Virus record (IMG/VR): IMGVR_UViG_3300045988_069456
Origin: a virus
Length of the DNA stretch: 61,867 nt
Strand: one strand, 5' to 3'
The position numbers and the translations under genes were made by a program. Positions 1,429-40,717 of this stretch are shown in pieces (positions within the stretch are counted from its first letter, which is position 1; the number at the start of each line of letters is the position of its first letter). The notes below the pieces were generated by a model that made no database searches, was not told where the DNA came from, and was given only the letters and a program-made list of their open reading frames with translations.

Positions 1429-2060
1429 TGGAGCAGAGCGTGGAAGAGAACGAAGAGGTAAAAGGAACCAGCAGAGAGCCCGGCACACTGGCAGGAGTGT
1501 ATGAGGTGCTGAGCCAGCGGGCTATTGATGAAGCTATCCGCATAGGTGTAGAAGCAGGCACGGCAGCGGCGGAGAGACGCCTGGAAGAGGGCAAAAAGGA
1601 GCAGACAAAGGGAAGATATAGCCGGAGACTGCACAACACACGCCTGTTGCTGGCAAATTACCGGAATCTGAAAGAGCATGTGAGCGGTGCAGTATTTAAT
1701 GGCCGCAAGGCAAAAGAGAGCGCCCTGGACATTCTGGACGGCCTGGACAGCTTCGAGTACGAGGACAATTATTATATTGGCAGCATTAAACAGAGCCAGC
1801 AGCGCACATTGATCATACTGACACACATTGACGAAATGCTGAATCTGTACCGGATATCATGCGAGCAGAGCGGCAAGGCAGAGGAAATGCGCCGGTACCG
1901 GATTTTGCACGCTGCATATATCGCGCCGGAAAAGAAGAGTGCAGAAGAAATTGCACGCGAAAATTGTGTAGAAAAGCGCACCTATTACAGTGACCTGGGA
2001 AAGGCTGTAAAGCCGCTGTCTGCACTAATTTTCGGCATTGATGGCATAAGACTTGCATAG
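1416..2060 (+). CDS. ArpU/RinA-like (sigma-like) late transcriptional regulator
   Basis: It sits just upstream of the packaging genes. The C-terminus is HTH-like (RRYRILHAAYIAPEKKSAEEIARENCVEKRTYYSDLGKAVKPLSALIFG), resembling sigma region 4 and the ArpU family. Confidence 0.5.
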   Translation: MERVMEQSVEENEEVKGTSREPGTLAGVYEVLSQRAIDEAIRIGVEAGTAAAERRLEEGKKEQTKGRYSRRLHNTRLLLANYRNLKEHVSGAVFNGRKAKESALDILDGLDSFEYEDNYYIGSIKQSQQRTLIILTHIDEMLNLYRISCEQSGKAEEMRRYRILHAAYIAPEKKSAEEIARENCVEKRTYYSDLGKAVKPLSALIFGIDGIRLA

Positions 2061-2138
2061 TGCCTGCACGGTGCAAAAAGTAGACATTTTCAATGCACTA
2101 CATAGATGTTAAAATGATAGAGTGGAGGAATTGGAGAA

Positions 2139-3785
2139 ATGGCAAGAAAGAAGAAAAAAGACGAGGCTGAGAACTATTTCAACAACGTGGCCAACTACCA
2201 GACCGAAGCGGAAGCAAGGGCCGTTACGCCGGAGGGTGTAAAGGTCTTTTGTGCTTTTGACGAGCTGGTACCTATTGGCAAAGTGGTTCCGAACCCTGGA
2301 AACCCAAACACCCATCCACCTAAGCAGGTCGCACTGCTGGCTGCCATTATCAAGGGGCAGGGATGGAGGAAACCTATTACAGTGAGCAAACGCAGCGGCT
2401 TTGTTGTGACCGGTCACGGACGCCTGGAAGCCGCACAGTCCATGCAGGCCAGTGTTGTGCCTGTCGAATACCAGGAATACGCCTCGGAGGCAGAGGAGTA
2501 CGCTGATCTGATGGCAGACAATCGCCTGGCGGAGCTGAGTGAAATGAACACCTCGGCACTGGCAGACATGCTGCAGCAGATGGACACCGGAGAGATACCG
2601 CTGGAAATGAGCGGCTACACAGAGGAGGACCTGGAAGATCTACTCAACGCCCTGGGAGGTGTGGACGATACGGAGAACAACGGAGAGGACACCGTACCGC
2701 CACCGAAAAACATTCCCATGACCCATGCCGGAGATATTTGGCACCTGGGGCAGCACCGCCTGATTTGTGGGGACAGCACCAAGCCAGAAACCCTGCAGAA
2801 GCTGCTGGGGGATGAACTGGCGCAGTGCGTGAACACTGATCCACCGTATGGCATAAGCCTGGATGGTGGCGGAGGAAACGGGAAGAGACAGAAACAGCAG
2901 ATCGAAAACAACGGCATGATCGCCAACGACGAGCTGACCGACGACGACCTCCTCGGCAAACTACTGATTCCGGCATTTAAGAACGCCGTGAAGTACAGCA
3001 AGCCAGATGCTGCATTTTACATTTACCATGCGACCGATACCCGCAGGGACTTTGAGGACGCTATGACAGCCGCAGGCCTGCTGGAAAAGCAATACTTGAT
3101 ATGGTTGAAGAACAACCACAACCTGAGCGGTACCGATTACCTGAGAGACTTCGAGCCTATGTTTTATGCAGAGAAAGCAGGACATACGGCCAAGTGGTGC
3201 GGAGATCGTAGCAACAACACCTGCTGGAAGATAACCCTCCGGGATGATGCAGGCATGGCAACCACCCTGAGCGGTGGCATTGTTGTGACTGACGGAGCAG
3301 GAGGCAAGGCTTTTATTTCTGACAAGGTACCAAAAGGAAAGAAAATCCGGTACCTGAGACTGCAGGAAGATAAAAGCGTTTTCTTATACCCGGAAGATAA
3401 GCAGGGAGCCGTTTGGGAAGTGGCAAGAGATACGGCGACGTTCCACCCGACACAGAAGCCCGTGGAACTGGCCACAAGGGCGATACTGAACAGCTCGGAT
3501 CCGGGAGACATTATCCTGGACCTGTTTGGCGGTTCTGGCTTCACGCTGATCGGCGCGGAAATGACCGAGAGACAGGCCAGGCTGGTAGAGTTAAGCCCAA
3601 CCTATTGTGATGGAATTATTCGGCGGTATGTAAGCTATACCGGCAATGCTGGTGTGACATGCACCAGGGACGGCAAAGAATACGCATACGTGCAGCTGAA
3701 TGAGGAAAATATAAAGGCAAATATGCCGGATCCGGAAGAAACGCCGGAAGCTGCTGAGGACATCAATGTCCCTGGCAAAGAGTAA
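2139..3785 (+). CDS. ParB-like nuclease domain fused to a beta-class DNA methyltransferase
   Basis: The N-terminus has ParB-type motifs (PNPGNPNTHPPKQV, VVTGHGRLEAA). DPPYG (motif IV) precedes FHPTQKP and LDLFGGSGFT (motif I). Confidence 0.85.
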   Translation: MARKKKKDEAENYFNNVANYQTEAEARAVTPEGVKVFCAFDELVPIGKVVPNPGNPNTHPPKQVALLAAIIKGQGWRKPITVSKRSGFVVTGHGRLEAAQSMQASVVPVEYQEYASEAEEYADLMADNRLAELSEMNTSALADMLQQMDTGEIPLEMSGYTEEDLEDLLNALGGVDDTENNGEDTVPPPKNIPMTHAGDIWHLGQHRLICGDSTKPETLQKLLGDELAQCVNTDPPYGISLDGGGGNGKRQKQQIENNGMIANDELTDDDLLGKLLIPAFKNAVKYSKPDAAFYIYHATDTRRDFEDAMTAAGLLEKQYLIWLKNNHNLSGTDYLRDFEPMFYAEKAGHTAKWCGDRSNNTCWKITLRDDAGMATTLSGGIVVTDGAGGKAFISDKVPKGKKIRYLRLQEDKSVFLYPEDKQGAVWEVARDTATFHPTQKPVELATRAILNSSDPGDIILDLFGGSGFTLIGAEMTERQARLVELSPTYCDGIIRRYVSYTGNAGVTCTRDGKEYAYVQLNEENIKANMPDPEETPEAAEDINVPGKE

Positions 3786-3848
3786 CACCTGAGAGGGCGG
3801 CCGCTATGGCCGTTCTTTTTATGTTTCGGAGAAAGGAGGGAGCAGCAC

Positions 3849-4427
3849 ATGGCAGCAAAGAGAGATGCGCCTGAACTATGGGAGCAGCAGGAGGGCGAGA
3901 AATCGCAGCATTACCAAAAGTTTTGCCAGTACAGAGACATGCCATACGGAACCCAGGGACGGGAACCGGAGAAAAGAAGCATCCGACGCCTGGCAGATGC
4001 TATGGGAATGAAAAGCAAAAGCAGCATTGAAAAGCTGAGTACGCAGTGGAACTGGGTAGAACGCGCAGCGGCCTATGATGTTTACATGACCGAGCTGGAA
4101 CGCTTCAGGCATGAGCAGGAAATCAAGAAAATGCACGATTTACACGCAAAACTGGGCGTGCAGCTTTTGAATAAAGCCACCCGTGGCCTGATAGCCCTCC
4201 CGGATAATGAATTGTCTGCACAGGACATTGCCCGACTGGCAGACGTCGGCGTGAAGATAGAAAGAATGAGCCGCGGCGACAGTGCGGAGAGCATAGCCGT
4301 GAGCGCAAAGGCAACCGTTGAGCATAGCGGCGGCCTGGAACTGAGCGGCAGCATTCCGGACATGTCCGACCTATCAGACGAGGAGCTGGAAAACCTTGAG
4401 CAAATACTGGGAAAGCTACATAAATAG
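3849..4427 (+). CDS. terminase small subunit (putative)
   Basis: It lies immediately upstream of, and overlaps, the large terminase. It has an HTH-like segment SIRRLADAMGMKSKSSIEKLSTQWNWVERAAAYD. Confidence 0.55.
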   Translation: MAAKRDAPELWEQQEGEKSQHYQKFCQYRDMPYGTQGREPEKRSIRRLADAMGMKSKSSIEKLSTQWNWVERAAAYDVYMTELERFRHEQEIKKMHDLHAKLGVQLLNKATRGLIALPDNELSAQDIARLADVGVKIERMSRGDSAESIAVSAKATVEHSGGLELSGSIPDMSDLSDEELENLEQILGKLHK

Positions 4428-5895
4428 CAGCCAGTTTGACCCAGGAACCCTGTTAAAAGGGATTCGCAGGGAACGGGCAGAGCGGTCCCTATCGGAGTTT
4501 ATACAGCAGTCCTGGCCTATTATTGAACCGGGTACCACGTATATACCGAACTGGCACATTGATCTGATATGTGAATACCTACATGCAGTTAAGGACGGGG
4601 AAATAAAGCGGCTTGTGATAAACATCCCGCCCCGACACATGAAAAGCATAAATGTAACGGTGTGCTTCCCGTGCTGGACCTGGACCCAGGCACCTGAGAA
4701 AAGATTTATTAAGGTTTCGTACAGCGATTCCCTGAGCCGTAAGCATAACGTACTAAGCCGTGATATTATACAGTCCCCCTGGTACACTGAGAACTGGGGC
4801 GACATTGTAAAGCTGAAAGACGACGTAAACCGGCAGAACGAATTTAAGAACACCCATCAAGGTATGATGTTTTCGACTTCCGTCGGCGGTGCACTGACTG
4901 GTGAGGGTGGCGACATAATCATAGTTGACGACCCACAGAACCCGCTCATGGCCAACAGTGAGACGGAGCGGCAAAACACCATAGATTTTTTCAAGAACAC
5001 ACTGCAGACACGACTGAACGACCCCAAGAACGGCGCGATCATTATCGTTATGCAGCGATTGCATGAAATGGACCTGACCGGTTATGTGCTGGCAGAAAAC
5101 CTGGGCTATGAACATTTATGTTTACCAGCTGAGGCGGAGAAAAAAACAATAATAACATTTCCTAAAAGCGGCAAAGAACTTGTTAGGGAAGAGGGGGACA
5201 TCCTGAACCCTCAACGATACGACAAGGAATCCCTGGCCGGACTGAAAAAGAGCATGGGCTCTTTACAGTATTCCGGACAGATGCAGCAGCGGCCAGCACC
5301 GGCAGACGGTAATATTTTCAAAAAGGCAGGGCTACAGCATTATTACAATCAAGCCCCGCACTGCAATATGATCATACAGAGCTGGGACATGGCATTTAAA
5401 GACAGCGACGGCAGCGCTAAGGTTGCTGGTTACGTGATGGGTCGGAGCGGACCCAACGTTTATGTATTTGACCTGGTAAACGAGAAAATGAGTTTTACCC
5501 AGTCTGTGAAAGCGGTTCGGGATATGACAGCCAAGTGGCCAAAAGCCAGGGCAAAGGTTGTTGAGGACAAGGCAAACGGCCCGGCGGTTATGGATGTGCT
5601 GGGAAAAGAAGTCTCTGGCCTGGTACCGTTCAACCCACGCGGCAGTAAGGAAGAGAGAGCTATTTCAGTGACACCATATTTTGAGGCTGGGAACGTATTT
5701 TTTCCGGATCCAAACACGGCGTCATGGGTTGCTGATTTACAGAAAGATTTACTGATGTTCCCAAAGGGCGTGTATAAAGATACCGTTGACGCCCTGGTGC
5801 AGGGAATTTTGTATTTGATGGATAAGCCATCACAGACAGGACCGCCGGCTGAGACAGTAGCGGGCGGCATGAGCAGTTATTGGAGAGGAAAGTGA
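4396..5895 (+). CDS. terL: terminase large subunit
   Basis: 499 aa with a TTG start after GAGGAG. It has an ATPase-like core (LVINIPPRHMKS, IIIVDDPQNP) and a C-terminal nuclease-like region. It sits in the canonical position before the portal. Confidence 0.85.
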   Translation: MSKYWESYINSSQFDPGTLLKGIRRERAERSLSEFIQQSWPIIEPGTTYIPNWHIDLICEYLHAVKDGEIKRLVINIPPRHMKSINVTVCFPCWTWTQAPEKRFIKVSYSDSLSRKHNVLSRDIIQSPWYTENWGDIVKLKDDVNRQNEFKNTHQGMMFSTSVGGALTGEGGDIIIVDDPQNPLMANSETERQNTIDFFKNTLQTRLNDPKNGAIIIVMQRLHEMDLTGYVLAENLGYEHLCLPAEAEKKTIITFPKSGKELVREEGDILNPQRYDKESLAGLKKSMGSLQYSGQMQQRPAPADGNIFKKAGLQHYYNQAPHCNMIIQSWDMAFKDSDGSAKVAGYVMGRSGPNVYVFDLVNEKMSFTQSVKAVRDMTAKWPKARAKVVEDKANGPAVMDVLGKEVSGLVPFNPRGSKEERAISVTPYFEAGNVFFPDPNTASWVADLQKDLLMFPKGVYKDTVDALVQGILYLMDKPSQTGPPAETVAGGMSSYWRGK

Positions 5896-5906
5896 GGTGC
5901 AAGGCT

Positions 5907-6230
5907 ATGGGAATGGGAAACAGAAACGCTGCAAACGGAAGCATGATCGCTGGCATGGGCTGTTTTGGTTGTATGCTTTATAATGCAACCGGAGCGGCCA
6001 CTAAGTACGAACCGGAGGCAGAGAACCGCCACATTGTTGCGGTGCAGGCGCTGACAGATACAACAATCAGAACAGTGGGAGCTGCCTGGGACGCACCAGC
6101 AGCAGTTGACGGACTGGTTCTGACAGCAGGCAACTGTTTGTACCTGAAAGCGGCCAGCGTGACGATTTTGAGCGGTACAGGCATTATGTACTATGGATAT
6201 GGCCAGGTAGCAGAGGCAGGTGGGGAATAA
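5907..6230 (+). CDS. hypothetical protein
   Basis: ORF 5880..6230. ATG 5907 is preceded by GAGGTG at a 7-nt spacing. Confidence 0.35.
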   Translation: MGMGNRNAANGSMIAGMGCFGCMLYNATGAATKYEPEAENRHIVAVQALTDTTIRTVGAAWDAPAAVDGLVLTAGNCLYLKAASVTILSGTGIMYYGYGQVAEAGGE

Positions 6231-6388
6231 TGAGCCTGTCGCTGATGAACCGGATCAACCGGAACAATAAGACCGGCAAGGGAGACGGCAAGAACATGGA
6301 CAGAAACGCCTCCGTGCAGGTTAAGGTACAACAGACAGCACAGAAGCTGCTGTATAAGATTTGTGGACGGAAAGGAGGGCTGTCATAG
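6230..6388 (+). CDS. hypothetical small protein (52 aa)
   Basis: The start overlaps the upstream stop (TAATG). The ORF ends at the portal GTG. It is below the ORF-track size cutoff. Confidence 0.3.
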   Translation: MSLSLMNRINRNNKTGKGDGKNMDRNASVQVKVQQTAQKLLYKICGRKGGLS

Positions 6389-7827
6389 TGGCAACCACAG
6401 CAGGAGAAATCGGCCGCATAGGGCAAAAGCGCTATGGCGGCTTTTTTTACGAGGAATTTTTGAAAGAGCTCCAGGGCCGTAAAGGCGTGGAGACATACAG
6501 AGAAATGGCAGACAATGACGACGTGATCGGCGCCATACTGTTTGCCATTGAAATGCTGATCCGGCAGACAAGCTGGACCATACAGCCAGGAGGACCAGAG
6601 AGCGCAGACGAAGAGGCAGCAGAGTTTATTGAGAGCTGCATGGACGACATGCAGGACACCTGGACAGATACCATTTCGGAAATCTTGTCCTTTTTAACAT
6701 ACGGGTGGAGCTACCACGAAATCGTGTACAAGCGGCGTTGCGGTAAAAACCGGGACAGCCGCCTAAACAGCAAGTATGACGACGGGCTGATCGGATGGGC
6801 TAAGTTGCCTATTAGAGCACAAGAAACCCTTTATCAGTGGGAGTATGACGACAACGACAACCTGACCGGCATGACACAGATGCCGCCGCCAAACTTCGGC
6901 CTGTACACGATACCGATAGAAAAAGCCCTGTTGTTCCGGACAAAGAGCCGGAAGAACAACCCGGAGGGGCGCAGCGTACTGAGGAACGCATACCGGTCCT
7001 GGTACTTCAAGCGCCGCATACAGGAGATTGAGGGAATCGGTATAGAGAGAGATCTGGCAGGCTTCCCGGTGTTGACGGCACCAGAGGGCATGAACATATG
7101 GGACACGGATGATCCTGACATGGTAGCCATCCGTGCAGGTATGGAGGCCATTGTTAAAAATGTGCGTCGAGACAGTACCGAGGGGCTGGCGCTTCCGAAC
7201 GGCTGGCAGTTCCAGCTGTTGAGCACAGGAGGCCGCCGCCAGTTTGATACCAACGCGATCATTGAGAGATATGACACCCGCATGGCAATGACCGTGCTGG
7301 CTGATTTTATTTTCCTGGGACACCAGAGCGTCGGCAGCTTTGCACTGAGTAGCGACAAGACAGAGCTGTTTTCTATGGCAATAGGCGCGTACCTTGATAT
7401 TATTTGTGAGGTTTTTAATAACCAGGCAATCCCACGTCTGATCAACCTGAATGGCGACCACTTCAACAGTATTACAGATTACCCGCGAATGGAGCACGGA
7501 GACATTGAGGACGAGGACATTGAGAAGCTGGCCAACTACATAAAGGAAATGACCGGCGTCGGCATATTAACACCAGACAGCCAGTTAGAGGACTATGTAA
7601 GAGAAGCGGCACACCTGCCTGAGCGCCTGGAAGATGATACACCGGCGGTACCGACACCGGGAGGAGAAAAGCCAGTAAATACGCGGCAGAGGCAGCAGGC
7701 AAAGCCACAACAGCAGCGTAGCAGCACGGTTGCCCCCGGAGGAGGAGAGGAAGATCCTGACGGAGTGACCGAGGAAGATATGCAGGCCGTTGAGGAGGCA
7801 AGGAAGAGACTGGGGAGGGACCCATAA
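6388..7827 (+). CDS. portal protein (Mu gp29/DUF935-like)
   Basis: The GTG start is 8 nt after AAAGGAGGG. About 479 aa, located between terL and the MuF-domain protein. The C-terminal tail is acidic and Gln-rich. Confidence 0.75.
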   Translation: MATTAGEIGRIGQKRYGGFFYEEFLKELQGRKGVETYREMADNDDVIGAILFAIEMLIRQTSWTIQPGGPESADEEAAEFIESCMDDMQDTWTDTISEILSFLTYGWSYHEIVYKRRCGKNRDSRLNSKYDDGLIGWAKLPIRAQETLYQWEYDDNDNLTGMTQMPPPNFGLYTIPIEKALLFRTKSRKNNPEGRSVLRNAYRSWYFKRRIQEIEGIGIERDLAGFPVLTAPEGMNIWDTDDPDMVAIRAGMEAIVKNVRRDSTEGLALPNGWQFQLLSTGGRRQFDTNAIIERYDTRMAMTVLADFIFLGHQSVGSFALSSDKTELFSMAIGAYLDIICEVFNNQAIPRLINLNGDHFNSITDYPRMEHGDIEDEDIEKLANYIKEMTGVGILTPDSQLEDYVREAAHLPERLEDDTPAVPTPGGEKPVNTRQRQQAKPQQQRSSTVAPGGGEEDPDGVTEEDMQAVEEARKRLGRDP

Positions 7828-10800
7828 TGCAATTTAAGAAGATACGGATCCGCAAAGCGACTGGCAAGAAGAAAAGTCAGGGCGGACAAAATGCGCTGAA
7901 CAAGCTGAACAGCTTCCTGAACGCGGCGTCCGCTGAACCGGCATATATTTTGCATAGCACATGGACCAACCAGCAAAATGCGATTACCTACAAGGAAATC
8001 CGCGAGGCTATAATGAACGGCCACATGAGCGAAAGCACTTTCCGACAGTGGCAGCAGGATTATAGCAAGATGGTAAGCGACAAGCTGTCCCCTGTATGGG
8101 TTAAAGCTATGGAAACGGCAAGCCTGGGCGTACAGGAACAGCATGACAGTTTTTTCTTTGATCACACATGGCCAGGGGTAACGAAGTGGGTTCAAGAGCA
8201 CGGCGCGGAGTTTGTGACGAACATAAGCGCTGAGCAAAAGAACGCAGTGAGCGCCCTGATCGCCAGAGCATACAGCAAGGGAGAGAGTGCGGAGGAGTTA
8301 TCCAGGGCAATACGCCCGTGCATAGGCCTGACACAGCGCCAGGCTATTGCAAACGCGAACTATTACGATCATGTGAAAGATTCCTTGCTAAAGAATAATC
8401 CAGGCATGAAAGAGGCCACAGCGGCCAAGAAAGCCCAGGAAGCAGCGGCCAAGTATGCAGCGCAACAGCACCGGTACCGTGCTAACATGATAGCGGAGAC
8501 AGAAATGGCGTTTGCATATCAGCACGGCGAGTATGAAGCAGTAAAGATGGCCCAGGCACAGGGCCTTATGGGCGTTGTGGAAAAGGTATGGTCAACAGCT
8601 TATGACGACGGCGTTTGCGATATCTGCAACGGGCTAGAGGGGCAGACGATAGGCATAGACGACAATTTTAATTTTAAGCTGAATAAATTACTTTTTGGAG
8701 GGCAAAGGCTGACACCACCGGCACATCCGCAGTGCAGGTGTGCGGTTGAGTATAGGGAGATTTCCCCGCCGGTAATACAGCCGGCACAGAGCCAGACACC
8801 GGGGCCAAGTATACCGGATCCGGCAACACCGTCCGTCCCTGGCAGCTTGCAAATGCCGCAGGGAATGAAAGACAAAGGTCTGGCGCACCTGGGAGGTACC
8901 GGAGAAATGCACTTGTGCGAGGACGGCAGCGGCACGGAATGGCTTTTCAAACCGGCGCAGTCCAAAAGCGGCACACCGGAAGAGTTCCGGGCCTATGTGC
9001 AGGAAGCTGGTTACAAGGTGCAGGGTATTGTGGATCCGGACACGGCCGTCAAGGTCGGCACCGGAAACATAGGCGGCCAGTTTGGCGCATACCAGCAGAA
9101 AATTGACGTGGACCCGAACGGGTTCGACTTCAAAGCCTGGCAGCAGTACGGCACCAAAGGCCTGACGGCTGACCAGGTGCAACAGATACAGCGGGAACAT
9201 GTTACAGACTGGCTGCTGGGGAACTATGACAGCCACGGCGGCAATTTTGTAACAGATACCAGCGGACGGCTGATCGGCGTAGACAAAGAACAGTCTTTCC
9301 GGTACATTACCGACAAGGCCAGCCAGAAAATGACATACGCATACCACCCCAACAGCAAGTATGGCGAAACAGAACCGCTGTACAACACTGTTTTTCGGAA
9401 GTATGCCAACAATGAGCTGGACCTAAACCCGCAGGACACCCTGGCATATATAAAACGGGTTGAGGCAATACCTGACAAGGAATACAGAGAGATATTCCGT
9501 GGCTATGCCGAAAGCCTGAAAGGCAAGGGAAAAGACGCGGAGCAGCTGCTGGACGCCATTGTGGAGCGCAAGCAGAACCTCCGGGAAACGTACCGGACAT
9601 TTTACACGGACCTGTTGACCCAGCGAACCGGTAAAAAACAGGCAGCTTTTGTGTGGGCGGACGAAGCACAGAACACGGCCAAGACCATCCAGGCGGCAAC
9701 GCATGACGTGGCAGCCCTGAAAAAGATGGGAAAAGCAGATCTGCTGCAGATGGCCAAGGCACAAAACATTGCCTATTGCAATAACATGAACAAACAGCAG
9801 CTCATTGATAGCTTGTCCGACCCGGTAAAGGCCAAACAGTGCAGCAAGGATGTACGGGACAGACTGGCGGCCAACCAGGCGGCCAGAAATGCCAAGACGA
9901 CACCGAAAGCACCGGCAGCAACCAATACAGGGCACTTGCCTCCAGGAACCAAAACGGCCGAGGATGTATTTACAGATTTTGACAAGATACACCCAGGGCC
10001 AAAGCAGGGGCAGGCAGTATGGAGCGACGCGGACAAGGTTGAGGGCATGAACCTGAGTGCCCGCCGTATGATCATAGACGGAGACGTGCACTATGAGATT
10101 ACTGGCAAGCTGAGGTCAAGCGCCTGGGATGATGTACTGCAGAGGATGGACGGAGCAAACCCAACCGTGCCGGCACAGCGTATCAATATGAGTTTTGAAA
10201 CCACAGCTCCGACAGCAAGGGCATGGACAAGCAACACATTAGTTGAAACCCAGGCAAACATACACGGGGTTGTTACCTACCTGGATTCTTATGACCAAAA
10301 GTATGCATCTTTTGAGCTGTACAGTGGGAAGCAACAAGGCCTGCATTCCTGGGACGGTTATTTTAGAATCCGTGTCCGGAGCAGCGGGGATGGCGTAGCA
10401 GATGCCAAGAAAGCTGCAGAGCTGCTGAAAAAGGTAGGACTGGACGAAGTGACCAGGACGCCGACAGCAGCCGCAGAGGAAACCCTGAAAAAGGCAAGGC
10501 TTGTGTGGTCACAAGCACCTAACCGCGTGGACGAACTAAGGAATCTGGCAGGCAGCAGCCTGGTAAAGAAACTGGATGAAATAATCATCCAGGAAAATAT
10601 AAACGTTGTGCAGCTAGCTAGCATGAAGCTGCAGAGCGAATACAACGGCTATATAACCTATGTTGTGCCTGGGCTTGCAAAGGATCTGGAAAAGGCTGGC
10701 GCAAAATATGTATACCACAGTGTTTCCAGAGAGGGCGACGTTATAAAGATTTTGCAAAGCGGCGGAATTTCTTCGACCATGAGCAGAATCAAGCAGGGCA

Positions 10801-11252
10801 TACAGAACCCAGCCGGCGCCAGTATGTACTCCGACATGAGAACCGGAGGAGCTGACAGTGCATTTACCAGAGTGGCAACAGGACAGGCGCAGCGGATGAA
10901 AAAGAAATTTTCCGGTGCTAGTGTTTATGGAGATTACCAGATAAAAATGAGCACGGAAGTCCTGGAACGCACAGATTACTATGCTTTTGAATGGGATAGA
11001 TTTGGCGAGGTTGCGGACATAAGCCAATACGGAAAAAGTCCCATGCAATTTGTTAAGGACATGGAAAGCGGCTTCCAGGGAAGCAACGAAATCATGTTCC
11101 GAAACGGGATAGATAGCAGATATTTTACAGAAATTATGTGCAACAGCCGACAAGAGCGGCAGCACCTGTTGAGCGAACTTCACGCGCAGGGTATAATGGA
11201 CATAAACGGTATTGATATCGAAAAATTTATAACCGTAGGGAGTGGATTGTAA
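7827..11252 (+). CDS. polyvalent virion protein: MuF/SPP1 gp7 head-morphogenesis domain plus kinase-like, Rho_N/SAP-like and ART-like domains
   Basis: The MuF signature CDICNGLEGQ...PPAHPQCRCAV lies at aa 264-306. The kinase-like catalytic loop NYDSHGGNF and GVDKEQSF lie at aa 466-491. LKKMGKADLLQMAKAQNIAYCNNMNKQQLIDSL lies at aa 631-663. The C-terminus has candidate H-Y-E positions (VYHSVS, GASMYSD, SNEIMF). Confidence 0.8.
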   Translation: MQFKKIRIRKATGKKKSQGGQNALNKLNSFLNAASAEPAYILHSTWTNQQNAITYKEIREAIMNGHMSESTFRQWQQDYSKMVSDKLSPVWVKAMETASLGVQEQHDSFFFDHTWPGVTKWVQEHGAEFVTNISAEQKNAVSALIARAYSKGESAEELSRAIRPCIGLTQRQAIANANYYDHVKDSLLKNNPGMKEATAAKKAQEAAAKYAAQQHRYRANMIAETEMAFAYQHGEYEAVKMAQAQGLMGVVEKVWSTAYDDGVCDICNGLEGQTIGIDDNFNFKLNKLLFGGQRLTPPAHPQCRCAVEYREISPPVIQPAQSQTPGPSIPDPATPSVPGSLQMPQGMKDKGLAHLGGTGEMHLCEDGSGTEWLFKPAQSKSGTPEEFRAYVQEAGYKVQGIVDPDTAVKVGTGNIGGQFGAYQQKIDVDPNGFDFKAWQQYGTKGLTADQVQQIQREHVTDWLLGNYDSHGGNFVTDTSGRLIGVDKEQSFRYITDKASQKMTYAYHPNSKYGETEPLYNTVFRKYANNELDLNPQDTLAYIKRVEAIPDKEYREIFRGYAESLKGKGKDAEQLLDAIVERKQNLRETYRTFYTDLLTQRTGKKQAAFVWADEAQNTAKTIQAATHDVAALKKMGKADLLQMAKAQNIAYCNNMNKQQLIDSLSDPVKAKQCSKDVRDRLAANQAARNAKTTPKAPAATNTGHLPPGTKTAEDVFTDFDKIHPGPKQGQAVWSDADKVEGMNLSARRMIIDGDVHYEITGKLRSSAWDDVLQRMDGANPTVPAQRINMSFETTAPTARAWTSNTLVETQANIHGVVTYLDSYDQKYASFELYSGKQQGLHSWDGYFRIRVRSSGDGVADAKKAAELLKKVGLDEVTRTPTAAAEETLKKARLVWSQAPNRVDELRNLAGSSLVKKLDEIIIQENINVVQLASMKLQSEYNGYITYVVPGLAKDLEKAGAKYVYHSVSREGDVIKILQSGGISSTMSRIKQGIQNPAGASMYSDMRTGGADSAFTRVATGQAQRMKKKFSGASVYGDYQIKMSTEVLERTDYYAFEWDRFGEVADISQYGKSPMQFVKDMESGFQGSNEIMFRNGIDSRYFTEIMCNSRQERQHLLSELHAQGIMDINGIDIEKFITVGSGL

Positions 11253-11674
11253 TGGACGACAGAAAAGCATACTGGTTTGAACAGCCGCACATGCCTGGCA
11301 TGTTTAATGTGGCCGTGCAGCCTATTGCGGATCCGCGGGACGGGCGCCTGCATTTTGCGGTGCCTGCTTCCGGTATATGGGCCTTGACCGGAAAAGTGAT
11401 CAAGGACACCGGGGACTATTTTGAATTTGAGTGTAATGACAGCGTTATGGGTGCCAGAGGCGGCACCTATAAATTTTCTGCACTGGATATTAAGACATTC
11501 CGGAAAGAGACATGCAAATGGATAGCCCAGGGAAAAGAAATTGCTGAGTGCTGCCAGAACACAGCAGATCTGCATTTCTGGTACCGGAAGAACTGGCCGA
11601 ACCCACGTGTCTATGAAATAGGCGAGTGGGAAATGAAAGAGAACCAGCGGAAGAAACGCCGCACGGACATTTAA
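11252..11674 (+). CDS. hypothetical protein
   Basis: TAATG-coupled to the upstream gene. 140 aa with no recognisable motif. Confidence 0.5.
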   Translation: MDDRKAYWFEQPHMPGMFNVAVQPIADPRDGRLHFAVPASGIWALTGKVIKDTGDYFEFECNDSVMGARGGTYKFSALDIKTFRKETCKWIAQGKEIAECCQNTADLHFWYRKNWPNPRVYEIGEWEMKENQRKKRRTDI

Positions 11675-11751
11675 AATCAAAAACGTACATTTTTGAGTGT
11701 AAAACGTGCCAAAAATCAACAGTAATGTGCAGAAATGCCATTTAACACAGA

Positions 11752-11780
11752 GCGTCTGGAAGAACCCCAGGCGCTTTTTT
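11752..11780 (+). terminator. rho-independent terminator candidate
   Basis: The stem is gcgtctgg / ccaggcgc (one G-U pair), the loop is aagaacc, and T6 follows. Confidence 0.55.
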
Positions 11781-11801
11781 CATACCTAAAAGGAGGAGAA
11801 A

Positions 11802-12266
11802 ATGCAGACTTTCAGTGACATTATTAAGAGCCGGGCGCAGCCGATTGAGAAAAAGGGGCGCTTTAAGGTTCAAAAAGTAGACGAGGACAAGCGACTTGTA
11901 TTTGGGTGGGCCAATGTGTCCGTAGATGTGGGCGGCAATGAGGTTGTTGACCTGCAGGAGGACATGATTGACCCGGAAACCCTGGAAGCCGCGGCCTATA
12001 AATTTGCAGAGCTGTACCGAGACGGCGGGGAAATGCACGAAAGAACAGGAACCGCAGTCATGGTGGAAAGCGTTGTGCTGACTGAGGAAAAGCAGGCAGC
12101 AATGGGACTGGCCGCCGGTACCTTGCCGGTTGGTTGGTGGATCGGCTTCCGCGTCACTGATGATGACGTGTGGGAGAAAGTAAAAAGTGGAGAATACAGC
12201 ATGTTCTCCATTGGCGGCACCGCAATCCGGGAAGAAATTGAGGACGACGGAGCCGTAGCAGAGTGA
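11802..12266 (+). CDS. XkdF-like putative prohead serine protease
   Basis: AAAGGAGGAG SD. Motifs KRLVFGWANVS ... GWWIGFRVTDDDVWEKVKSGEYSMFSIGG are typical of the PBSX XkdF family. Confidence 0.7.
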   Translation: MQTFSDIIKSRAQPIEKKGRFKVQKVDEDKRLVFGWANVSVDVGGNEVVDLQEDMIDPETLEAAAYKFAELYRDGGEMHERTGTAVMVESVVLTEEKQAAMGLAAGTLPVGWWIGFRVTDDDVWEKVKSGEYSMFSIGGTAIREEIEDDGAVAE

Positions 12267-12274
12267 TAAGCAGG

Positions 12275-12298
12275 AACACCGGGAAACTGGTGTTTTTT
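12275..12298 (+). terminator. weak terminator or attenuator hairpin
   Basis: The stem is aacacc / ggtgtt and is followed by a T-run. The stem is short, so confidence is low. Confidence 0.3.
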
Positions 12299-12332
12299 GT
12301 TTATAAAATTTTAGAGAGGAGGACACGGTCAA

Positions 12333-13631
12333 GTGGCAAAGACAAAGCTGAAAGACCTGGAAGTAACAGAGGTTAGCCTGGTGGATGCTGGCGCAAACCA
12401 GCACGCGCACGTTGCCCTGTATAAGAGAAACGGCGGGAAACCGGAAGAACAGCCAACAGGCCAGAATCCGGAACAGACACCAGCAAAAAGCGGCCTGCAC
12501 AAGTTCTTTTCTGCCATTGGCAAGGCGTTGAAGCTGGACCAGGCGGACATTGACAGCGCAGTGGCCGACATTGAAAAAGCAGATACATTCAATGACAAGA
12601 TGGAAGAACGCAAACTCCGCCGCATTACTGATGAAATTTGGGACGTGTGTTTTGCACTGGAAAACAGCTTGTGCAGCATTATCCGGGACGAAGAAGTAAC
12701 GGACAAGGCCGCACTGATGAACCAGAGCATTGACGAGTTTGACGTGGCCATCAAGGGCCTGGTTACTTCCTGGGGCGCAGGTAAAACGGCACAGATTGTA
12801 AAAACAGCTGGCGCCGTGAGCGTGGAGCACATGCAGGAAACCGTTGACCGCCTGGGAGGGATGATTGAAAAGGCGACAGGCAAACAGCAGCCGCCGGAAA
12901 CAGAGGATCCTAAACAGGAGGGCGGGGAGACACCGCCGGAAGATAACGGAAAAACCAAAACAAAGAAATCTATAGGAGGAGAAACCGACATGAAATTCAA
13001 CGAGGCAAACATGACAGCAACAGACCGCATGGCGTTTGAAGAACTTAAAAAGCGCTATGGTGTTGAGGATGGAGCTGAGGGCGCAGGAGCAGGCGCAGGA
13101 GCAGCGCCGGAGGGCGTAGGCAAGGCAGCGGGCACCGGAGTAGCAGAAGCCCCAGGAGCGGCCGCTGAGGGAGCACAGGGAGCAACAGGACAGCAGGCAG
13201 CAGGCGAAGATATTTACAAGGGTCTGCACCCGTTAGTGGCAGCTGAACTGATCGCACTGAGAAAGCAGGCAGACGCAGCACAGGAGGAAAAACTTTACAA
13301 CGTTGCGAAGAAGTACGAGATCATCGGCAAGAAACCGGAAGAACTGGTCCCGACATTAAAGGCGCTGCAGGCAGCAGGCGGCACTGCATACGACGACATG
13401 ATCGGCGTGCTTGACGGAGCAGTGGCAGCGGTAGAAAAATCTGGACTTTTCGGAGAGGTTGGCAAAAGAGGCGTAGGAGCCACAGGAGGCACTGACGCAT
13501 GGAGCCAGATCGAAAAGAAAGCGGAAGAAATTCGCAAGAGCAACGCCGCCCTGAGCTATGCAGAATCCATTGACGCTGCATGTGTACAGAACCCTGACCT
13601 TGTACATGAGTATGAGGCAACAAGACGATAA
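12333..13631 (+). CDS. scaffolding protein (putative)
   Basis: GTG start after AGAGGAGG. 432 aa, rich in Ala, Glu, Gly and Lys with low-complexity segments. It lies between the protease and the capsid genes. Confidence 0.6.
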   Translation: MAKTKLKDLEVTEVSLVDAGANQHAHVALYKRNGGKPEEQPTGQNPEQTPAKSGLHKFFSAIGKALKLDQADIDSAVADIEKADTFNDKMEERKLRRITDEIWDVCFALENSLCSIIRDEEVTDKAALMNQSIDEFDVAIKGLVTSWGAGKTAQIVKTAGAVSVEHMQETVDRLGGMIEKATGKQQPPETEDPKQEGGETPPEDNGKTKTKKSIGGETDMKFNEANMTATDRMAFEELKKRYGVEDGAEGAGAGAGAAPEGVGKAAGTGVAEAPGAAAEGAQGATGQQAAGEDIYKGLHPLVAAELIALRKQADAAQEEKLYNVAKKYEIIGKKPEELVPTLKALQAAGGTAYDDMIGVLDGAVAAVEKSGLFGEVGKRGVGATGGTDAWSQIEKKAEEIRKSNAALSYAESIDAACVQNPDLVHEYEATRR

Positions 13632-13644
13632 GGAGGCAAAGAAC

Positions 13645-14031
13645 ATGAGCTATTACGGAACAACTATCAATGACAGCGCGGTAATTGTGGTAAAAGCAGG
13701 GGAAGAGATTCCGGCACCGGCTTTTTTAGCAGTTGGCGCTGATGGAAAAGTAGCAACTGCAGGCAAGAACGCAATCGGTATTGTGCTGCCTGGATGTGAC
13801 GATAAGGTAACAGTGGGCGACGACCTGGACGTGCAGATCAAGGACATTGGCGCATGGACAGCTGGCGCAGCCGTAGCATACGGCGACGAGCTGGCAGTCG
13901 GAGCAGGCGGCAAGGCAGTAAAGGCAACAGCAAAGTCCTTTATCGTTGGCATTGCACTGGAAGAAGCAACCAAAGCAGGCCAGCGCATTGCTGTACAGAT
14001 CGTAAAAGCAGGCTACAAGCCAGCAGAATAA
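13645..14031 (+). CDS. DUF2190-family capsid decoration/cement protein
   Basis: AAGGAGG SD. 128 aa, Gly/Ala/Val-rich (AVGADGKVATAGKNAIGIV ... GDELAVGAGGKAVKA). It lies directly upstream of the major capsid gene. Confidence 0.65.
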   Translation: MSYYGTTINDSAVIVVKAGEEIPAPAFLAVGADGKVATAGKNAIGIVLPGCDDKVTVGDDLDVQIKDIGAWTAGAAVAYGDELAVGAGGKAVKATAKSFIVGIALEEATKAGQRIAVQIVKAGYKPAE

Positions 14032-14053
14032 TAAACAGGAGGAATAAAAGACT

Positions 14054-15085
14054 ATGAGCAGAAATGTAATGAGCACCAACGCAGGGATCGCGGCAGAAAT
14101 TGCAAAAGGATGGAAGCCGAACCAGTACCTGACTAATATGTCCCAGGCGTATTTCGCACAGCCTGGCGACTGGGTGGCACCGTCCATTTTCCCAATTTGT
14201 CCGGTAGCTACTAGCTCCGGATTTTACTACACATTCGACAAGGGAGATCTTGCGAGGGACAACGTAGCCCGCAAACCGGCGTTCGGAAAAGTTAATCCGG
14301 CCATCATGGGAACAGGAGAAAACCAGTATGGCTGCAAGGTTGACCAGGTTATTGTCGGCATTGACCAGATCGCAGCATTGAACTACCAGCGCAGTCATGC
14401 GCCGGGCGTACAGGATCCACGCCGTGCCAAGGTTCGTTTTGCTAACGAGCAGATGAGCCTGCACCTTGATATCCTTTTCGCAAAAGGATTTTTCCACAGT
14501 GGAGTATGGGGAGACGAATGGCAGGGAACAGACAGCAACCCAAGCGGCAAGAAGTTCCTGAAATTTAATGATGCCAACTTTGATCCGGTACACTTCTTTG
14601 ACGAGCGCCGCCGCGATATTAAGCGCAGAGGTCGCCGCCAGCCTAACCGTTTAGCCCTGGGCTATGACGCATACCTGGGACTGAAAGAACATCCGGACAT
14701 TGTTGAGCGTGTGAAGTACACCGGATCAACCGCAAACCCGGCTATCGTAACACAGCAGGTTCTGGCCCAGGTACTGGGATTTGAACAGGTTAAGGTACTG
14801 GAATCTACATACAATGTTGCAAAACCAGGAGAAGAGGCTGACATGCAGTTTATTTGCGACAGCAACGCAGCCCTGATGTGCTATGCAACTAACACTCCGC
14901 AGGTAGACGAGCCGTCCGCCGGCTATATCTTTACATGGGATATGCTGGGAAATGGTTCCTATACTGCTATGGATCAGTACGAGGGAGAGAACGGAACACA
15001 CAGCGAGTTCATTGAGGGACTTATGAGCACCGACATGAGAAAGACGGCCGACGATCTGGCAACATACTTTACTGATTGTGTGTAA
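14054..15085 (+). CDS. major capsid protein (lambda gpE-like family)
   Basis: 343 aa with a strong SD. It sits in the canonical position after the decoration protein and has a conserved-looking segment GSTANPAIVTQQVLAQVLGFEQV. Confidence 0.85.
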   Translation: MSRNVMSTNAGIAAEIAKGWKPNQYLTNMSQAYFAQPGDWVAPSIFPICPVATSSGFYYTFDKGDLARDNVARKPAFGKVNPAIMGTGENQYGCKVDQVIVGIDQIAALNYQRSHAPGVQDPRRAKVRFANEQMSLHLDILFAKGFFHSGVWGDEWQGTDSNPSGKKFLKFNDANFDPVHFFDERRRDIKRRGRRQPNRLALGYDAYLGLKEHPDIVERVKYTGSTANPAIVTQQVLAQVLGFEQVKVLESTYNVAKPGEEADMQFICDSNAALMCYATNTPQVDEPSAGYIFTWDMLGNGSYTAMDQYEGENGTHSEFIEGLMSTDMRKTADDLATYFTDCV

Positions 15086-15104
15086 TGCCTGAAAGGAGGA
15101 TGTT

Positions 15105-15545
15105 ATGAGCTATGTATGCGTAAAGCCGATCACACTACTCGGCAACAATTACAAGCCGGGAGAGCTGATCCAGGATGGACACATCCTCCCGTCCAGAGAG
15201 CGTGCGCTGGTACGCACTGGCTGCATTGCTGAGGTAACAGGAGGCACTGAGCTTCCTGTTGCTGAGCTGGTGCAGGTAAAAACGGGGGAAGAGGTTACAT
15301 TTTCCGTCCCGGTAGTGCAGGAGTCTGACGGGGACACAGCCCAGGTTATGGGTGTGCCACTGACAGAGGGAGACGTGCAGCATATTTTTTCTATTATGCA
15401 GATGAACGCGGAAGAAGCGGCAAAAGCAGTTAAGGACGTGAAAAACGAAAACGTTTTGATTGTGTTACACGCTGCTGATTCCCGCAACACTGTAAAGAAA
15501 GCTGCCAAGAGCCAGGCAGAGGCCCTGGAGCCTGCAGAAAGGTAA
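15105..15545 (+). CDS. hypothetical head-associated protein
   Basis: GAAAGGAGG SD. 146 aa. Confidence 0.5.
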   Translation: MSYVCVKPITLLGNNYKPGELIQDGHILPSRERALVRTGCIAEVTGGTELPVAELVQVKTGEEVTFSVPVVQESDGDTAQVMGVPLTEGDVQHIFSIMQMNAEEAAKAVKDVKNENVLIVLHAADSRNTVKKAAKSQAEALEPAER

Positions 15546-15556
15546 GGTAAAGCCGC

Positions 15557-16006
15557 ATGAAGAAAAAGACGTATACCTATAATCCGGAGAAGATAGGAGA
15601 GCCTGGCGTTGACCGTATGCGCTTCGAGATAGGCGACACCATGGTCGAGGGCGAACAGGAAACCAGCGCTTTGTGCAACGAAGAATACGAGGCCATCATT
15701 GCGGCAAGAAAGACGTGGAAGCGTGCCAAGCTGGCCGTACTGGAAAGCATAATGCGCCGGTTCGGCATGGAAGTGAACACGACGGTCGGACCGTTGAAGC
15801 TGGAAATGCAGAGCCGCGCAGAATTTTGGCGGAAACAGTACGAACAGCTGAAAAAAGAGTGCGGAGCTGACACGGTACCAACGGCCGGAAAGGCTTCTCC
15901 GGAATCGGGAACAGACGGAGGCCATTATTTTTATGGTGGTATGCACGACAATGCGTATGCAAAAACAGGAGGGGGCGAGCGCGATCTTTTATTTAAGACC
16001 AGGTAA
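15557..16006 (+). CDS. hypothetical protein (head-tail connector candidate by position)
   Basis: 149 aa. Assigned by position only. Confidence 0.4.
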   Translation: MKKKTYTYNPEKIGEPGVDRMRFEIGDTMVEGEQETSALCNEEYEAIIAARKTWKRAKLAVLESIMRRFGMEVNTTVGPLKLEMQSRAEFWRKQYEQLKKECGADTVPTAGKASPESGTDGGHYFYGGMHDNAYAKTGGGERDLLFKTR

Positions 16007-16738: not shown

Positions 16739-16750
16739 GGAGGTGCCAGC

Positions 16751-39760: not shown

Positions 39761-40717
39761 ATGACGAATTTAGCAAACAAAATCGGCGGCGCATTATTTG
39801 GTGTAGCAGTAGGGGACGCACTGGGCGCCCCGCTGGAATTTATGAACGCAAAGGAAATCCAGCACAAGCACGGAACCGTGAAAGAAATGATCGGTGGCGG
39901 ATGGCTGAACGTAAAGCCGGGAGAAGTTACCGACGACACGCAAATGACGATCGCAGCAGCCCTGGGCGTAGCAATGCACCCGGATAATCCGGAGCCGTGG
40001 GCGGGCAAGCACTTTGCAGAGTGGGCCATGGGTGGCCCGAAAGATATCGGCGGCACCTGCCGCAGTGCGATCACAAACGCCCTGCAGATGATGCTGAGAC
40101 GGCCAGATCTGAAAGACTGCAAGGGCCTGGCGCCATATGAGCTATGGGAACAGGCAGCACAGTTGACAGCCCAGCAGAACGGCAACAGAAGCGCAGGCAA
40201 TGGCGCCCTGATGCGTACCGTGTACCCTGGCCTGTACTATACAGACGAAAGCAGAGCCGTAGAGGTTGCGGACAGAATCGGACGCCTGACACACTGGGAC
40301 GACCTGAGTGCGGAGGCTTGCCAGCTTTATACAAAAATGATATACTATTTAATCATGCACCATGCAGACCCGGTGCAAAAACTATGCAACGGGCTGAATG
40401 ACATAACCAGGGGCACACGGTACAGCCGCAAAGCTGAACCTGCAAAGCTGAACCCCAGCGGTTTTGTGGTTGACTCACTGCATTGTGCGCTGCACTGCCT
40501 GAGAAGAACAAAGAACTTTGAGGCGGCCGTAGTGATGGCAGCAAACATGGGCGGAGACGCTGACACCATAGCAGCCATTACAGGAGGGCTGGCAGGAGCC
40601 TTGTATGGATATGAGAGAATCCCGCTCCGGTGGCGTATGCTACTGGATAGCGACACCAAGAGCACACTGATCAGCCTGACAGGAGACGCAGCAAGGAACC
40701 ATGGAGGCAATAAGTAA
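39761..40717 (+). CDS. ADP-ribosylglycohydrolase (DraG/ARH family)
   Basis: N-terminal motif GALFGVAVGDALGAPLEF and C-terminal motif ANMGGDADTIAAITGGLAGALYGYERIP, both hallmarks of the family. Confidence 0.85.
   Translation: MTNLANKIGGALFGVAVGDALGAPLEFMNAKEIQHKHGTVKEMIGGGWLNVKPGEVTDDTQMTIAAALGVAMHPDNPEPWAGKHFAEWAMGGPKDIGGTCRSAITNALQMMLRRPDLKDCKGLAPYELWEQAAQLTAQQNGNRSAGNGALMRTVYPGLYYTDESRAVEVADRIGRLTHWDDLSAEACQLYTKMIYYLIMHHADPVQKLCNGLNDITRGTRYSRKAEPAKLNPSGFVVDSLHCALHCLRRTKNFEAAVVMAANMGGDADTIAAITGGLAGALYGYERIPLRWRMLLDSDTKSTLISLTGDAARNHGGNK

Follow-up and report, generated by a model that had tools for sequence, protein, structure and literature searches.

Organization of the MuF fusion gene

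A stretch of viral DNA 61,867 nucleotides long (IMG/VR record IMGVR_UViG_3300045988_069456; this whole stretch is referred to below as the window) was analyzed with respect to the gene at positions 7827-11252, which encodes a 1141-aa fusion protein with an N-terminal MuF domain, and to two genes associated with it. The first-pass annotation, made from the letters of the sequence, had described the product as a polyvalent virion protein combining a MuF domain with kinase-like, Rho_N/SAP-like and ADP-ribosyltransferase (ART)-like modules. The open reading frame (ORF) proved to be genuine, and all of the motifs cited were found in place: CDICNGL (264-270), HPQCRCAV (300-307), WLFKPAQ (372-378), NYDSHGGNF (466-474), IGVDKEQSF (483-491), VYHSVS (962-967), GASMYSD (997-1003) and SNEIMF (1086-1091). 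The elements of the gene and the two associated genes are as follows:

7827..11252, + strand: whole MuF fusion gene (MuF - linker - KIN - Rho_N - linker - MID - ART-like; 1141 aa; ATG start)
7827..8759, + strand: MuF / SPP1 gp7-type head-morphogenesis domain (aa 1-311; four-Cys motif C264, C267, C303, C305, read from sequence)
8760..8861, + strand: Pro-rich, poorly conserved linker (aa 312-345; from the conservation profile and sequence)
8862..9659, + strand: KIN, a HipA/CtkA-like protein-kinase-like domain (aa 346-611)
9717..9812, + strand: Rho_N / HEH (SAP-like) helix pair (aa 631-662; Pfam PF07498)
9972..10541, + strand: MID, a domain of a beta-sheet plus helices, N-terminal to the ART-like domain (aa 716-905)
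10542..11249, + strand: ART-like domain (aa 906-1141; core strands from about aa 934)
11252..11674, + strand: small partner gene, 140 aa (TAATG overlap with the fusion gene; candidate immunity or neutralising protein for the ART-like domain)
39761..40717, + strand: ADP-ribosylglycohydrolase (ARH), 318 aa, DraG/Tri1-like (between the endolysin and integrase genes; phrog_6572, E = 2e-52; candidate eraser)

The full architecture was retained in 260 homologues (E ≤ 1e-3) with identity down to 42%, and it was kept among 112 full-length homologues. With a profile of the non-MuF part, 3029 cluster representatives (50% identity) were matched at E ≤ 1e-3, 772 of which also passed E ≤ 1e-30. Because of these homologues and profile matches, 7827-11252 is judged, by sequence comparison, to be a real gene rather than a chance ORF.

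The MuF assignment was borne out by the Pfam family Phage_Mu_F (PF04233; aa 142-307, 50.7 bits against a cut-off of 29.6) and by the PHROG head-morphogenesis families phrog_28652 (E = 2.4e-64) and phrog_2468 (E = 8e-43), which span aa 14-310; the TIGR01641 score was below threshold (27.9 against 39.65). The Rho_N/SAP assignment was borderline for this protein, whose score of 21.6-23.5 bits fell just short of the 24.9-bit cut-off, and clearer for its relatives: precomputed Pfam data list the domain for most homologues, and five of the six family members scanned matched PF07498 (best E = 1.2e-6). The family profile also aligned weakly with the N-terminus of Rho in the PDB (3l0o, residues 7-46, E = 0.048). 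In one sub-branch (P0118-P0120), Rho_N is replaced by a Pro/Lys-rich linker, and for this reason the helix pair is taken to be an accessory part of the fusion protein.

The kinase-like domain

Fold searches with Foldseek, proposed in the first-pass annotation as a check, were run with models of aa 340-611 and aa 704-1141 and recovered a kinase fold and an ART fold, respectively. The AlphaFold2 model of aa 340-611 (272 residues; 63 sequences) had a predicted local distance difference test (pLDDT) of 96.5 and a predicted template modelling score (pTM) of 0.93. At E ≤ 1e-3 it matched 492 PDB chains, all of them protein-kinase-like folds; the best superpositions were with Helicobacter pylori CtkA (3akl, template modelling score (TM) 0.54-0.55), and other matches included HipA (4pu4, E = 6e-5), lanthipeptide-synthetase kinase domains, RIO and Eph kinases. 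The key elements of KIN are a G-loop (G356/T358/G359), Lys375, which the model places on strand 3 (within WLFKPAQ), a catalytic loop D468-x-H470-x-x-N473 lying between helix E and the following strand, and the DFG equivalent D486-K487-E488, with D486 (of DKEQ) placed after the strand that follows this loop.

Conservation was assessed in 171 KIN domains from 147 cluster representatives. Residues K375, D468 and D486 were conserved in 96-98% of these domains and N473 in about 90%, and the K-D-N-D signature was intact in 148 of the 171, both copies included where the domain is duplicated. Residue 470 was H in 107 domains and K in 45. The HipA_C profile (PF07804) scored below its threshold of 30.5 bits both on the fusion protein (12.9 bits) and on the mycobacteriophage protein Onyinye gp16 (18.2 bits).

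The first-pass annotation had assigned this region to an atypical kinase of the PI3K/PI4K type. The kinase fold and the catalytic motifs stood, whereas the family did not: PF00454 gave only 12.9-15.3 bits against 27.1, over a 45-residue stretch around the catalytic loop (aa 452-496), and PI3K/PI4K members were absent from the top 50 Foldseek matches, the nearest structures being CtkA and HipA. Judging by the model, "PI3K/PI4K-like" is better stated as "HipA/CtkA-like". Thus, KIN has a protein kinase fold with an intact catalytic core and is predicted to be active.

The C-terminal MID and ART-like domains

The AlphaFold2 model of aa 704-1141 had a pLDDT of 92.9 and a pTM of 0.90, and MID and the ART-like domain are therefore predicted to be two domains packed in a defined way. 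For MID, Foldseek returned no significant PDB fold match, only START, LprG or lipocalin-like matches of low probability. For aa 704-1141, the top eight PDB matches were all DarT (7yk3, 8baq, 7omu, 7omv, 7omw, 7omy, 7omx), with E-values between 1.3e-3 and 1.7e-2, probabilities of 0.97-1.0, a TM by target of 0.46-0.57 and alignments of about 215 columns; yeast Tpt1 came next (TM by target 0.60), and cholera toxin A1 and Scabin were weaker. In the BFVD, nine viral proteins were matched at E ≤ 1e-3 (ten at about 1e-3 or better), including iridovirus 422L, betabaculovirus ORF32 and a siphovirus "minor capsid protein".

Among 109 ART-like domains, the conserved residues were R987, G991, G997, S999, D1003, G1007, R1048, D1050, D1057, G1060, E1088 and N1127-G1128. 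R987, S999 and E1088 were near-invariant or invariant (93-100%), with E1088, which opens the core strand 1088-1092 of the model, conserved in 100%. The R987-S999 and S999-E1088 spacings are 12 and 89 residues, compared with 11 and 89 for R52/S63/E152 of Escherichia coli DarT1.

The first-pass annotation had proposed an H-Y-E triad for this domain. The ART fold and the invariant glutamate (E1088) were upheld, whereas the triad had to be abandoned: position 964 is S, A or H in relatives, and Y1001 is helical and not conserved. H964 itself closes the first core strand, at the point where a His is found in ARTD enzymes, and the consensus of the relatives here is YVWxGV. Membership of the R-S-E exotoxins (ADPrib_exo_Tox, Alt/VIP2) was also rejected, as there was no Pfam match and hhalign of MID-ART against two canonical ADPrib_exo_Tox domains gave a probability of 0.1. 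The position of R987, twelve residues before S999, presumably differs from the canonical R-S-E spacing. Searches with the C-terminal 440 aa gave no Pfam ART family at E ≤ 10 and nothing useful by phmmer; sequence profiles of DarT (DUF4433 / DarTG) did not include the domain, and hmmsearch of the PDB found no DarT. Thus, aa 906-1141 are predicted to adopt an ADP-ribosyltransferase fold closest to DarT, an assignment supported by the structural matches at modest E-values.

The small partner gene

A jackhmmer search started from the 140-aa ORF showed that in 33 of 42 loci (L001-L042), including loci from the candidate phyla radiation (CPR), the ART-like gene is directly followed by a homologue. 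These homologues are genes of 115-150 aa, and the gap between the stop of the ART-like gene and the small gene was -16 to +59 nt in nearly all loci, a few ORF calls starting earlier; in L040, where the ART gene is fragmented, the homologue lies about 1 kb away. In eight of the nine loci with no homologue, the sequence stops at the ART gene or shortly beyond it (in L035 the beginning of a truncated homologue can still be seen), and L025 was the sole locus with room for the small gene but no homologue of it.

The small-ORF family had no match in Pfam, PHROGs, NCBIfam or the PDB, family-profile search included, and it has no invariant polar residues. The small ORFs that follow the mycobacteriophage fusions described below are not homologous to that of the window, which indicates that the small gene tracks the ART-like domain rather than MuF or KIN. 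The small gene and the ART-like gene thus form a candidate toxin-immunity pair, as judged from gene order.

The ADP-ribosylglycohydrolase gene

The best NCBIfam models for the ARH of the window were DraG (E = 6e-57) and the arginine-specific Tri1 (E = 2e-39), both under the equivalog cut-offs. When the neighbours of the ART-like genes were clustered over 23 CPR loci, only three families recurred, namely, the ART-like protein itself (23), the small protein (15 by BLAST, more by hidden Markov model (HMM)) and an ARH (6). The ARH was adjacent in 6 of the 23 loci, in at least four arrangements, with Pfam E = 1e-61 and 3e-71. In IMG/VR, the 80 best relatives of the fusion and the best relatives of the ARH had 11 contigs in common, and 9 of 11 fusion-bearing contigs of at least 55 kb carry such an ARH. 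On contigs for which both genes could be placed, the distance between them was roughly 22-36 kb, mostly about 28 kb as in the window, and the pattern held down to about 40% identity of the fusion. The adjacency in CPR genomes, read from gene order, is evidence independent of this co-occurrence in phages.

No second ART was found in the window by tblastn with canonical phage ARTs, a search that was not exhaustive. Next to the ART-like genes no macrodomain (DarG) or NADAR emerged as a recurrent third family, the Macro and NADAR profiles having been scanned non-exhaustively. In the assays of PMC11833690, ARH-type enzymes were inactive on base-linked ADP-ribose, although phosphate-end adducts are substrates for them; since the associated ARH is DraG/Tri1-like, a protein arginine is favoured over a DNA base as the target.

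Domain architectures and distribution of the family

Module HMMs were mapped on the best 147 cluster representatives. MID and ART formed one C-terminal unit in most of the architectures, with a minority showing ART and no detectable MID. KIN, often duplicated, was located upstream of MID-ART in proteins of 1000-4180 aa with varied N-termini, and KIN-only and MID-ART-only proteins were also present. Pfam found zero families in three giant relatives (2300-4180 aa), which are therefore not classical polyvalent proteins with known domains.

A scan seeded with the ART-like domain, limited to one genome per species, gave 38 loci. MuF fusions of prophage type were found in Oscillospiraceae, Lachnospiraceae, Flavonifractor, Dysosmobacter, Tissierellales, Halanaerobiales, Thermoanaerobacterium and one metagenome-assembled genome (MAG) of Atopobiaceae, and 23 loci belonged to Saccharibacteria and other CPR phyla, where the ART-like proteins have no MuF domain. 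Scans of IMG/VR for close relatives of P0146 and P0152 found none. In the human gut the family is very common, single 90%-identity clusters of metagenomic sequences having 4823 and 6891 members.

The collection of cultured phages contained relatives of the KIN part only. Two of them are mycobacteriophage proteins: McProf gp54, with a VG15 minor-capsid domain, KIN (E = 6e-40) and ADPrib_exo_Tox (E = 5e-16), and Onyinye gp16, with KIN (E = 4e-26) followed by a Pfam-significant ADPrib_exo_Tox at the C-terminus. KIN thus has two unrelated ART families as partners, each located at the same place in head-module proteins, which supports both the reading of the C-terminal domain as an ART and a functional link between kinase and ART. 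Taken at the level of domain order, this suggests that kinase and transferase are habitual partners in one polypeptide rather than two unrelated cargoes.

Several loci deserve separate description. In the CPR loci L021, L026, L034 and L036, another kinase-looking stretch (NEGGWY..YYVKFY..LANWDVVG..DN..IDNGG) lies upstream of MID-ART; it was marginal to the KIN HMM (E = 0.05-0.3) and had no Pfam match in L021, the sole such protein scanned, and it may represent a second kinase family paired with MID-ART. Two Shapirobacteria loci (L024, 3-16543, and L030, 3-10819) contain ORFs of at least 5513 and at least 3605 aa, open at both locus ends, with the ART-like domain in the middle of the protein. 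A decayed copy was found in an Oscillospiraceae MAG (L017, 6175-9278, on a 1.68-Mb contig), with MuF, KIN, MID and ART spread over seven short ORFs and the small partner ORF intact. The 75.9-kb contig IMGVR_UViG_3300034524_000011 (L068 and L091) carries two copies of the fusion gene about 56 kb apart, which could reflect a concatemer assembly or two related prophages. In L001, whose fusion is 44% identical, the small partner ORF is separated from the prohead protease gene by two extra canonical ART genes (ADPrib_exo_Tox and ART; 10030-11773), so that this head module stacks several ARTs.

Genomic context of the window

The other genes of the window that were considered are as follows:

3849-4427: small terminase (head-assembly operon)
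4396-5895, + strand: large terminase, TerL (phrog_38)
6361-7827, + strand: portal gene (phrog_113, E = 1e-101; directly 5' of the MuF fusion gene, one-base overlap)
11802..12266, + strand: XkdF-type prohead serine protease (Pfam Peptidase_S78_2, E = 8e-27)
14054-15085: major head protein (after a scaffold-like protein and a cement protein)
36628-38142: endolysin
41313-42428, - strand: integrase

The order of the head module is TerL, portal, MuF fusion, 140-aa ORF, protease, scaffold, cement and major head protein, and TAATG stop/start overlaps join the portal gene to the fusion gene and the fusion gene to the 140-aa ORF. The same order, with the fusion gene directly after the portal gene, was found in the relatives L001 and L003. 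The XkdF-type protease (11802-12266) is a possible processor of the fusion protein. Over positions 1969-19108, the window shares 96-97% identity with a contig of Ruminococcus sp. AF41-9 (QUDO01000007.1); given this identity and the integrase gene, the source is a temperate phage or prophage of a gut Clostridia host.

Elsewhere in the window, a diversity-generating retroelement was identified, consisting of a variable repeat (VR, 32972-33042), a template repeat (TR, 33567-33637) and a reverse transcriptase gene (RT, 33906-35063; phrog_1423, E = 4e-109). The repeats are 71 nt long and 89% identical, and all eight mismatches (8/8) have A in the RT-proximal copy (TR) and another base in the VR; the latter lies at the 3' end of ORF 32029-33120, which probably encodes a tail fibre or receptor-binding protein. 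A DNA methyltransferase with a fused ParB-like domain (phrog_498, E = 9e-121; ParB families at aa 43-240) is encoded at 2139-3785, immediately upstream of the terminase genes, and an N6_N4_Mtase occupies the corresponding position in L001 and L003. The early region includes a gene for an SbcC-like / recombinase-type ATPase (46845-48800; phrog_77, E = 1e-65) followed by one for a RecT-like protein (49291-50400).

Proposed mechanism and alternative explanations

The fusion protein is interpreted as a virion-packaged composite effector of a temperate Clostridia phage, comprising KIN and a DarT-like ART and associated with a cognate small protein and an ARH; the probability of this interpretation is estimated at about 0.55. 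By analogy with SPP1 gp7, MuF toxins and T4 Alt, the MuF domain would place a few copies of the protein at the portal or in the capsid, from which it would exit together with the DNA. The HipA/CtkA-like KIN would then phosphorylate host proteins, and the Rho_N helix pair would probably contact nucleic acid. The ART-like domain is expected to use NAD+ to ADP-ribosylate its target, an activity to which the ARH neighbours lend indirect support, with E1088 as the putative catalytic residue and R987 and S999 in the NAD-binding region. The 140-aa protein, encoded next to the transferase, may bind and neutralise it in the producing cell or in lysogens, and the DraG/Tri1-like ARH that co-occurs with the fusion may erase the mark later or in lysogens, which would make the modification, presumably of arginine, reversible. 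The claim of the first-pass annotation that two separate effectors are injected at infection is plausible, but the data point rather to a recurrent pairing of kinase with ART, accompanied by a cognate small protein and an ARH. The biological role may be takeover of the host or anti-defence, in the manner of Alt and the T7 kinase, or, following the model of Jamet et al., competition and superinfection immunity.

A number of observations weigh against this interpretation. The ART assignment is derived from structure prediction, with Foldseek E-values against the PDB of about 1e-3 only, and the domain is not recognised by Pfam (E ≤ 10), the PADLOC DarT profiles (E ≤ 10), NCBIfam or hmmsearch of the PDB. 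The correspondence of R987/S999/E1088 to R52/S63/E152 of DarT1 is inferred from spacing and predicted secondary structure, and the strand-1 position at which His or Arg is canonical varies between H, S and A. Coupling of the two enzymes is not obligatory, as MuF-MID-ART proteins with no KIN occur (P0138, P0144, P0155, L014). The small protein could be a chaperone or cofactor instead of an inhibitor, and the co-occurrence of fusion and ARH in phages could be explained by shared ancestry, the ARH gene lying 28 kb from the fusion gene.

It is possible, although we hold this view only tentatively, that the protein serves chiefly as a polymorphic toxin in competition or in superinfection exclusion rather than in host takeover, virions poisoning non-lysogens while lysogens are protected by the small protein, the ARH or both. 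The temperate phage, the C-terminal extension and the downstream ORF of less than 150 aa are hallmarks of the MuF toxins of Jamet et al. 2017, the pair of ART and small ORF occurs in cellular CPR contexts with no phage genes, like a toxin-immunity island, and the ARH gene is located at the lysogeny end, adjoining the integrase gene. However, the location of the small ORF within the late structural operon and its translational coupling to the toxin gene point to late rather than lysogenic expression, and only a few copies of the protein would be delivered per virion.

Another explanation, the main rival to an arginine target, treats the ART-like domain as a true DarT, which would modify a base of single-stranded DNA or the phosphate ends of RNA or DNA of the host or of competing phages, with Rho_N recruiting it to nucleic acid. 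The best structural matches, DarT1 and DarT2 and then Tpt1/KptA, agree with it, as do the presence of Rho_N in the same polypeptide and the BFVD matches, among which the iridovirus 422L and baculovirus ORF families are DarT-related according to Iyer et al. 2022. We nevertheless consider a nucleic-acid target unlikely: the associated eraser is a DraG/Tri1-type ARH, whereas DarTG systems have a macrodomain or NADAR, and ARH-type enzymes did not act on base-linked ADP-ribose in the assays of PMC11833690, though phosphate-end adducts are substrates for them. In addition, Rho_N is missing from a sub-branch and was detected in only one CPR protein (L020), and the DarT profiles of Pfam and PADLOC do not match.

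The role of KIN is also open to a different account, in which it is a cis-acting regulator or co-enzyme that activates the transferase after ejection or catalyses a non-kinase reaction, as SidJ and SelO do. Its fusion, often as tandem copies, upstream of two unrelated ART families (MID-ART and ADPrib_exo_Tox) would fit such a role, and so would the other kinase-like stretch in CPR ART-like proteins; yet the canonical K/D/N/D phosphotransferase set is kept, the protein kinases CtkA and HipA are nearest in structure, KIN-only as well as ART-only proteins are known, and the evidence is associative only, so that we regard this account as quite doubtful. Finally, the C-terminal 440 aa could be a non-enzymatic structural or DNA-handling part of the head with the small ORF encoding an assembly chaperone, in keeping with the location in the head-assembly operon and with the failure of every sequence family of known enzymatic function to match, but this is highly improbable given the invariant polar residues in an ART-like arrangement, the occurrence of MID-ART and the small ORF next to an ARH in CPR genomes away from phage genes, and the canonical ART at the corresponding position in related MuF proteins.

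Beyond the composite effector proposed above, a broader proposal may be put forward as a speculation of low probability, namely, that KIN, MID-ART, the small protein and the ARH constitute a single unrecognised mobile writer-plus-antidote system of gut Clostridia phages and of CPR/Saccharibacteria episymbionts, in which kinase and transferase act jointly on one target or on each other. If so, the kinase might, for example, gate the transferase by phosphorylation, or both enzymes might mark one host protein; the result would be an injected reversible switch preceding phage gene expression, which could feed into the lysis-lysogeny decision or superinfection immunity.

Significance

Injected virion enzymes act before phage genes are read, and to our knowledge few of them are known besides T4 Alt. 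Neither Pfam, PHROGs, NCBIfam nor PADLOC detects the ART-like domain, MID or the small partner, so that widespread host-modifying chemistry may be annotated merely as "minor head protein". The occurrence in CPR genomes suggests that the toxin-antidote unit serves in the biology of episymbionts as well. The cassette is present in an apparent isolate genome, that of Ruminococcus sp. AF41-9, which makes virion proteomics and genetics feasible.

The DarT-like ART with MID, the small partner, the ARH association, the kinase fusion and the presence in CPR were not found in Pfam, PHROGs, NCBIfam, PADLOC or the open-access papers searched. The MID-ART family and its partner genes thus appear to be undescribed in open-access text, although an earlier description elsewhere is possible. 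What has already been described includes MuF polymorphic toxins, polyvalent proteins, packaged ARTs and HipA-family kinases in head modules of gut phages (PMC5576092, PMC5512222, PMC9503650, PMC8008677).

Comparison with known systems

In gene organization, the fusion resembles the MuF polymorphic toxins (Jamet et al. 2017, PMC5576092), for example the MuF-ART of Enterococcus EFV, in which the MuF gene follows the portal gene of a temperate Firmicutes phage, has a C-terminal enzymatic extension and is followed by an ORF of less than 150 aa. The window shows the same features, with an extension of about 830 aa, a downstream ORF of 140 aa and an integrase gene, but its C-terminal domain lies outside the families catalogued there, and KIN and Rho_N are inserted; kinases had zero occurrences in that survey.

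With the polyvalent proteins (Iyer et al. 2017, PMC5512222), the fusion shares the presence of several effector domains in one virion-associated chain (MuF, KIN, Rho_N and MID-ART), and ARTs, kinases and Rho-N/SAP are all listed among their domains. The ARTs of polyvalent proteins, however, belong to the H-Y-D Tox-ART-HYD2 clade, whereas that of the window has no conserved H or Y. Their kinases lack a C-lobe and come from elements of Verrucomicrobia, Chlamydia and Bacteroidetes, whereas the KIN model extends past the catalytic core into a run of helices that may correspond to the C-lobe.

DarT of the DarTG systems (8baq, 7omv, 7yk3) is the best structural match; the R...S...E spacing is like that of DarT1, whose essential residues include R52 and E152 and whose "Y" position is taken by S63 (PMC11543638), and a neutralising partner is encoded next door in both cases. 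In contrast to DarT, the domain of the window shows no sequence-profile similarity to that family, carries the additional MID and is fused to a virion protein, and in place of a macrodomain or NADAR it is associated with an ARH and with a small protein in which no enzymatic domain can be recognised. The pairing of an ART with a DraG-like ADP-ribosylarginine hydrolase is also found in Tre1-Tri1, a type VI secretion system ART toxin with ARH-family immunity, and in DraT-DraG; unlike in these systems, the ARH match in the window is sub-equivalog, its gene lies 28 kb from the ART gene, and a separate small partner is present as well.

The mycobacteriophage "minor capsid and ADP-ribosyltransferase fusion proteins" (McProf gp54, Onyinye gp16) resemble the fusion in having KIN in head-module proteins and a C-terminal ART, but this ART is a canonical ADPrib_exo_Tox, the kinase part is unannotated in the records, and the downstream small ORFs are unrelated. 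The HipA-family kinases of "Gratiaviridae" (Benler et al. 2021, PMC8008677) are encoded between the portal and capsid genes, as in the window, a likeness of position.

In function, the proposed effector is comparable with T4 Alt, a head-packaged and injected ART, and with the T7 gp0.7 kinase, which modify the host by ADP-ribosylation and phosphorylation at or right after DNA entry; a 2026 paper deals with the disarming of defences by the T7 kinase. Alt belongs to the R-S-E Alt/VIP2 clade, and the T7 kinase is expressed from the genome rather than packaged, whereas the protein of the window, according to the models, joins both folds in one MuF-anchored chain.

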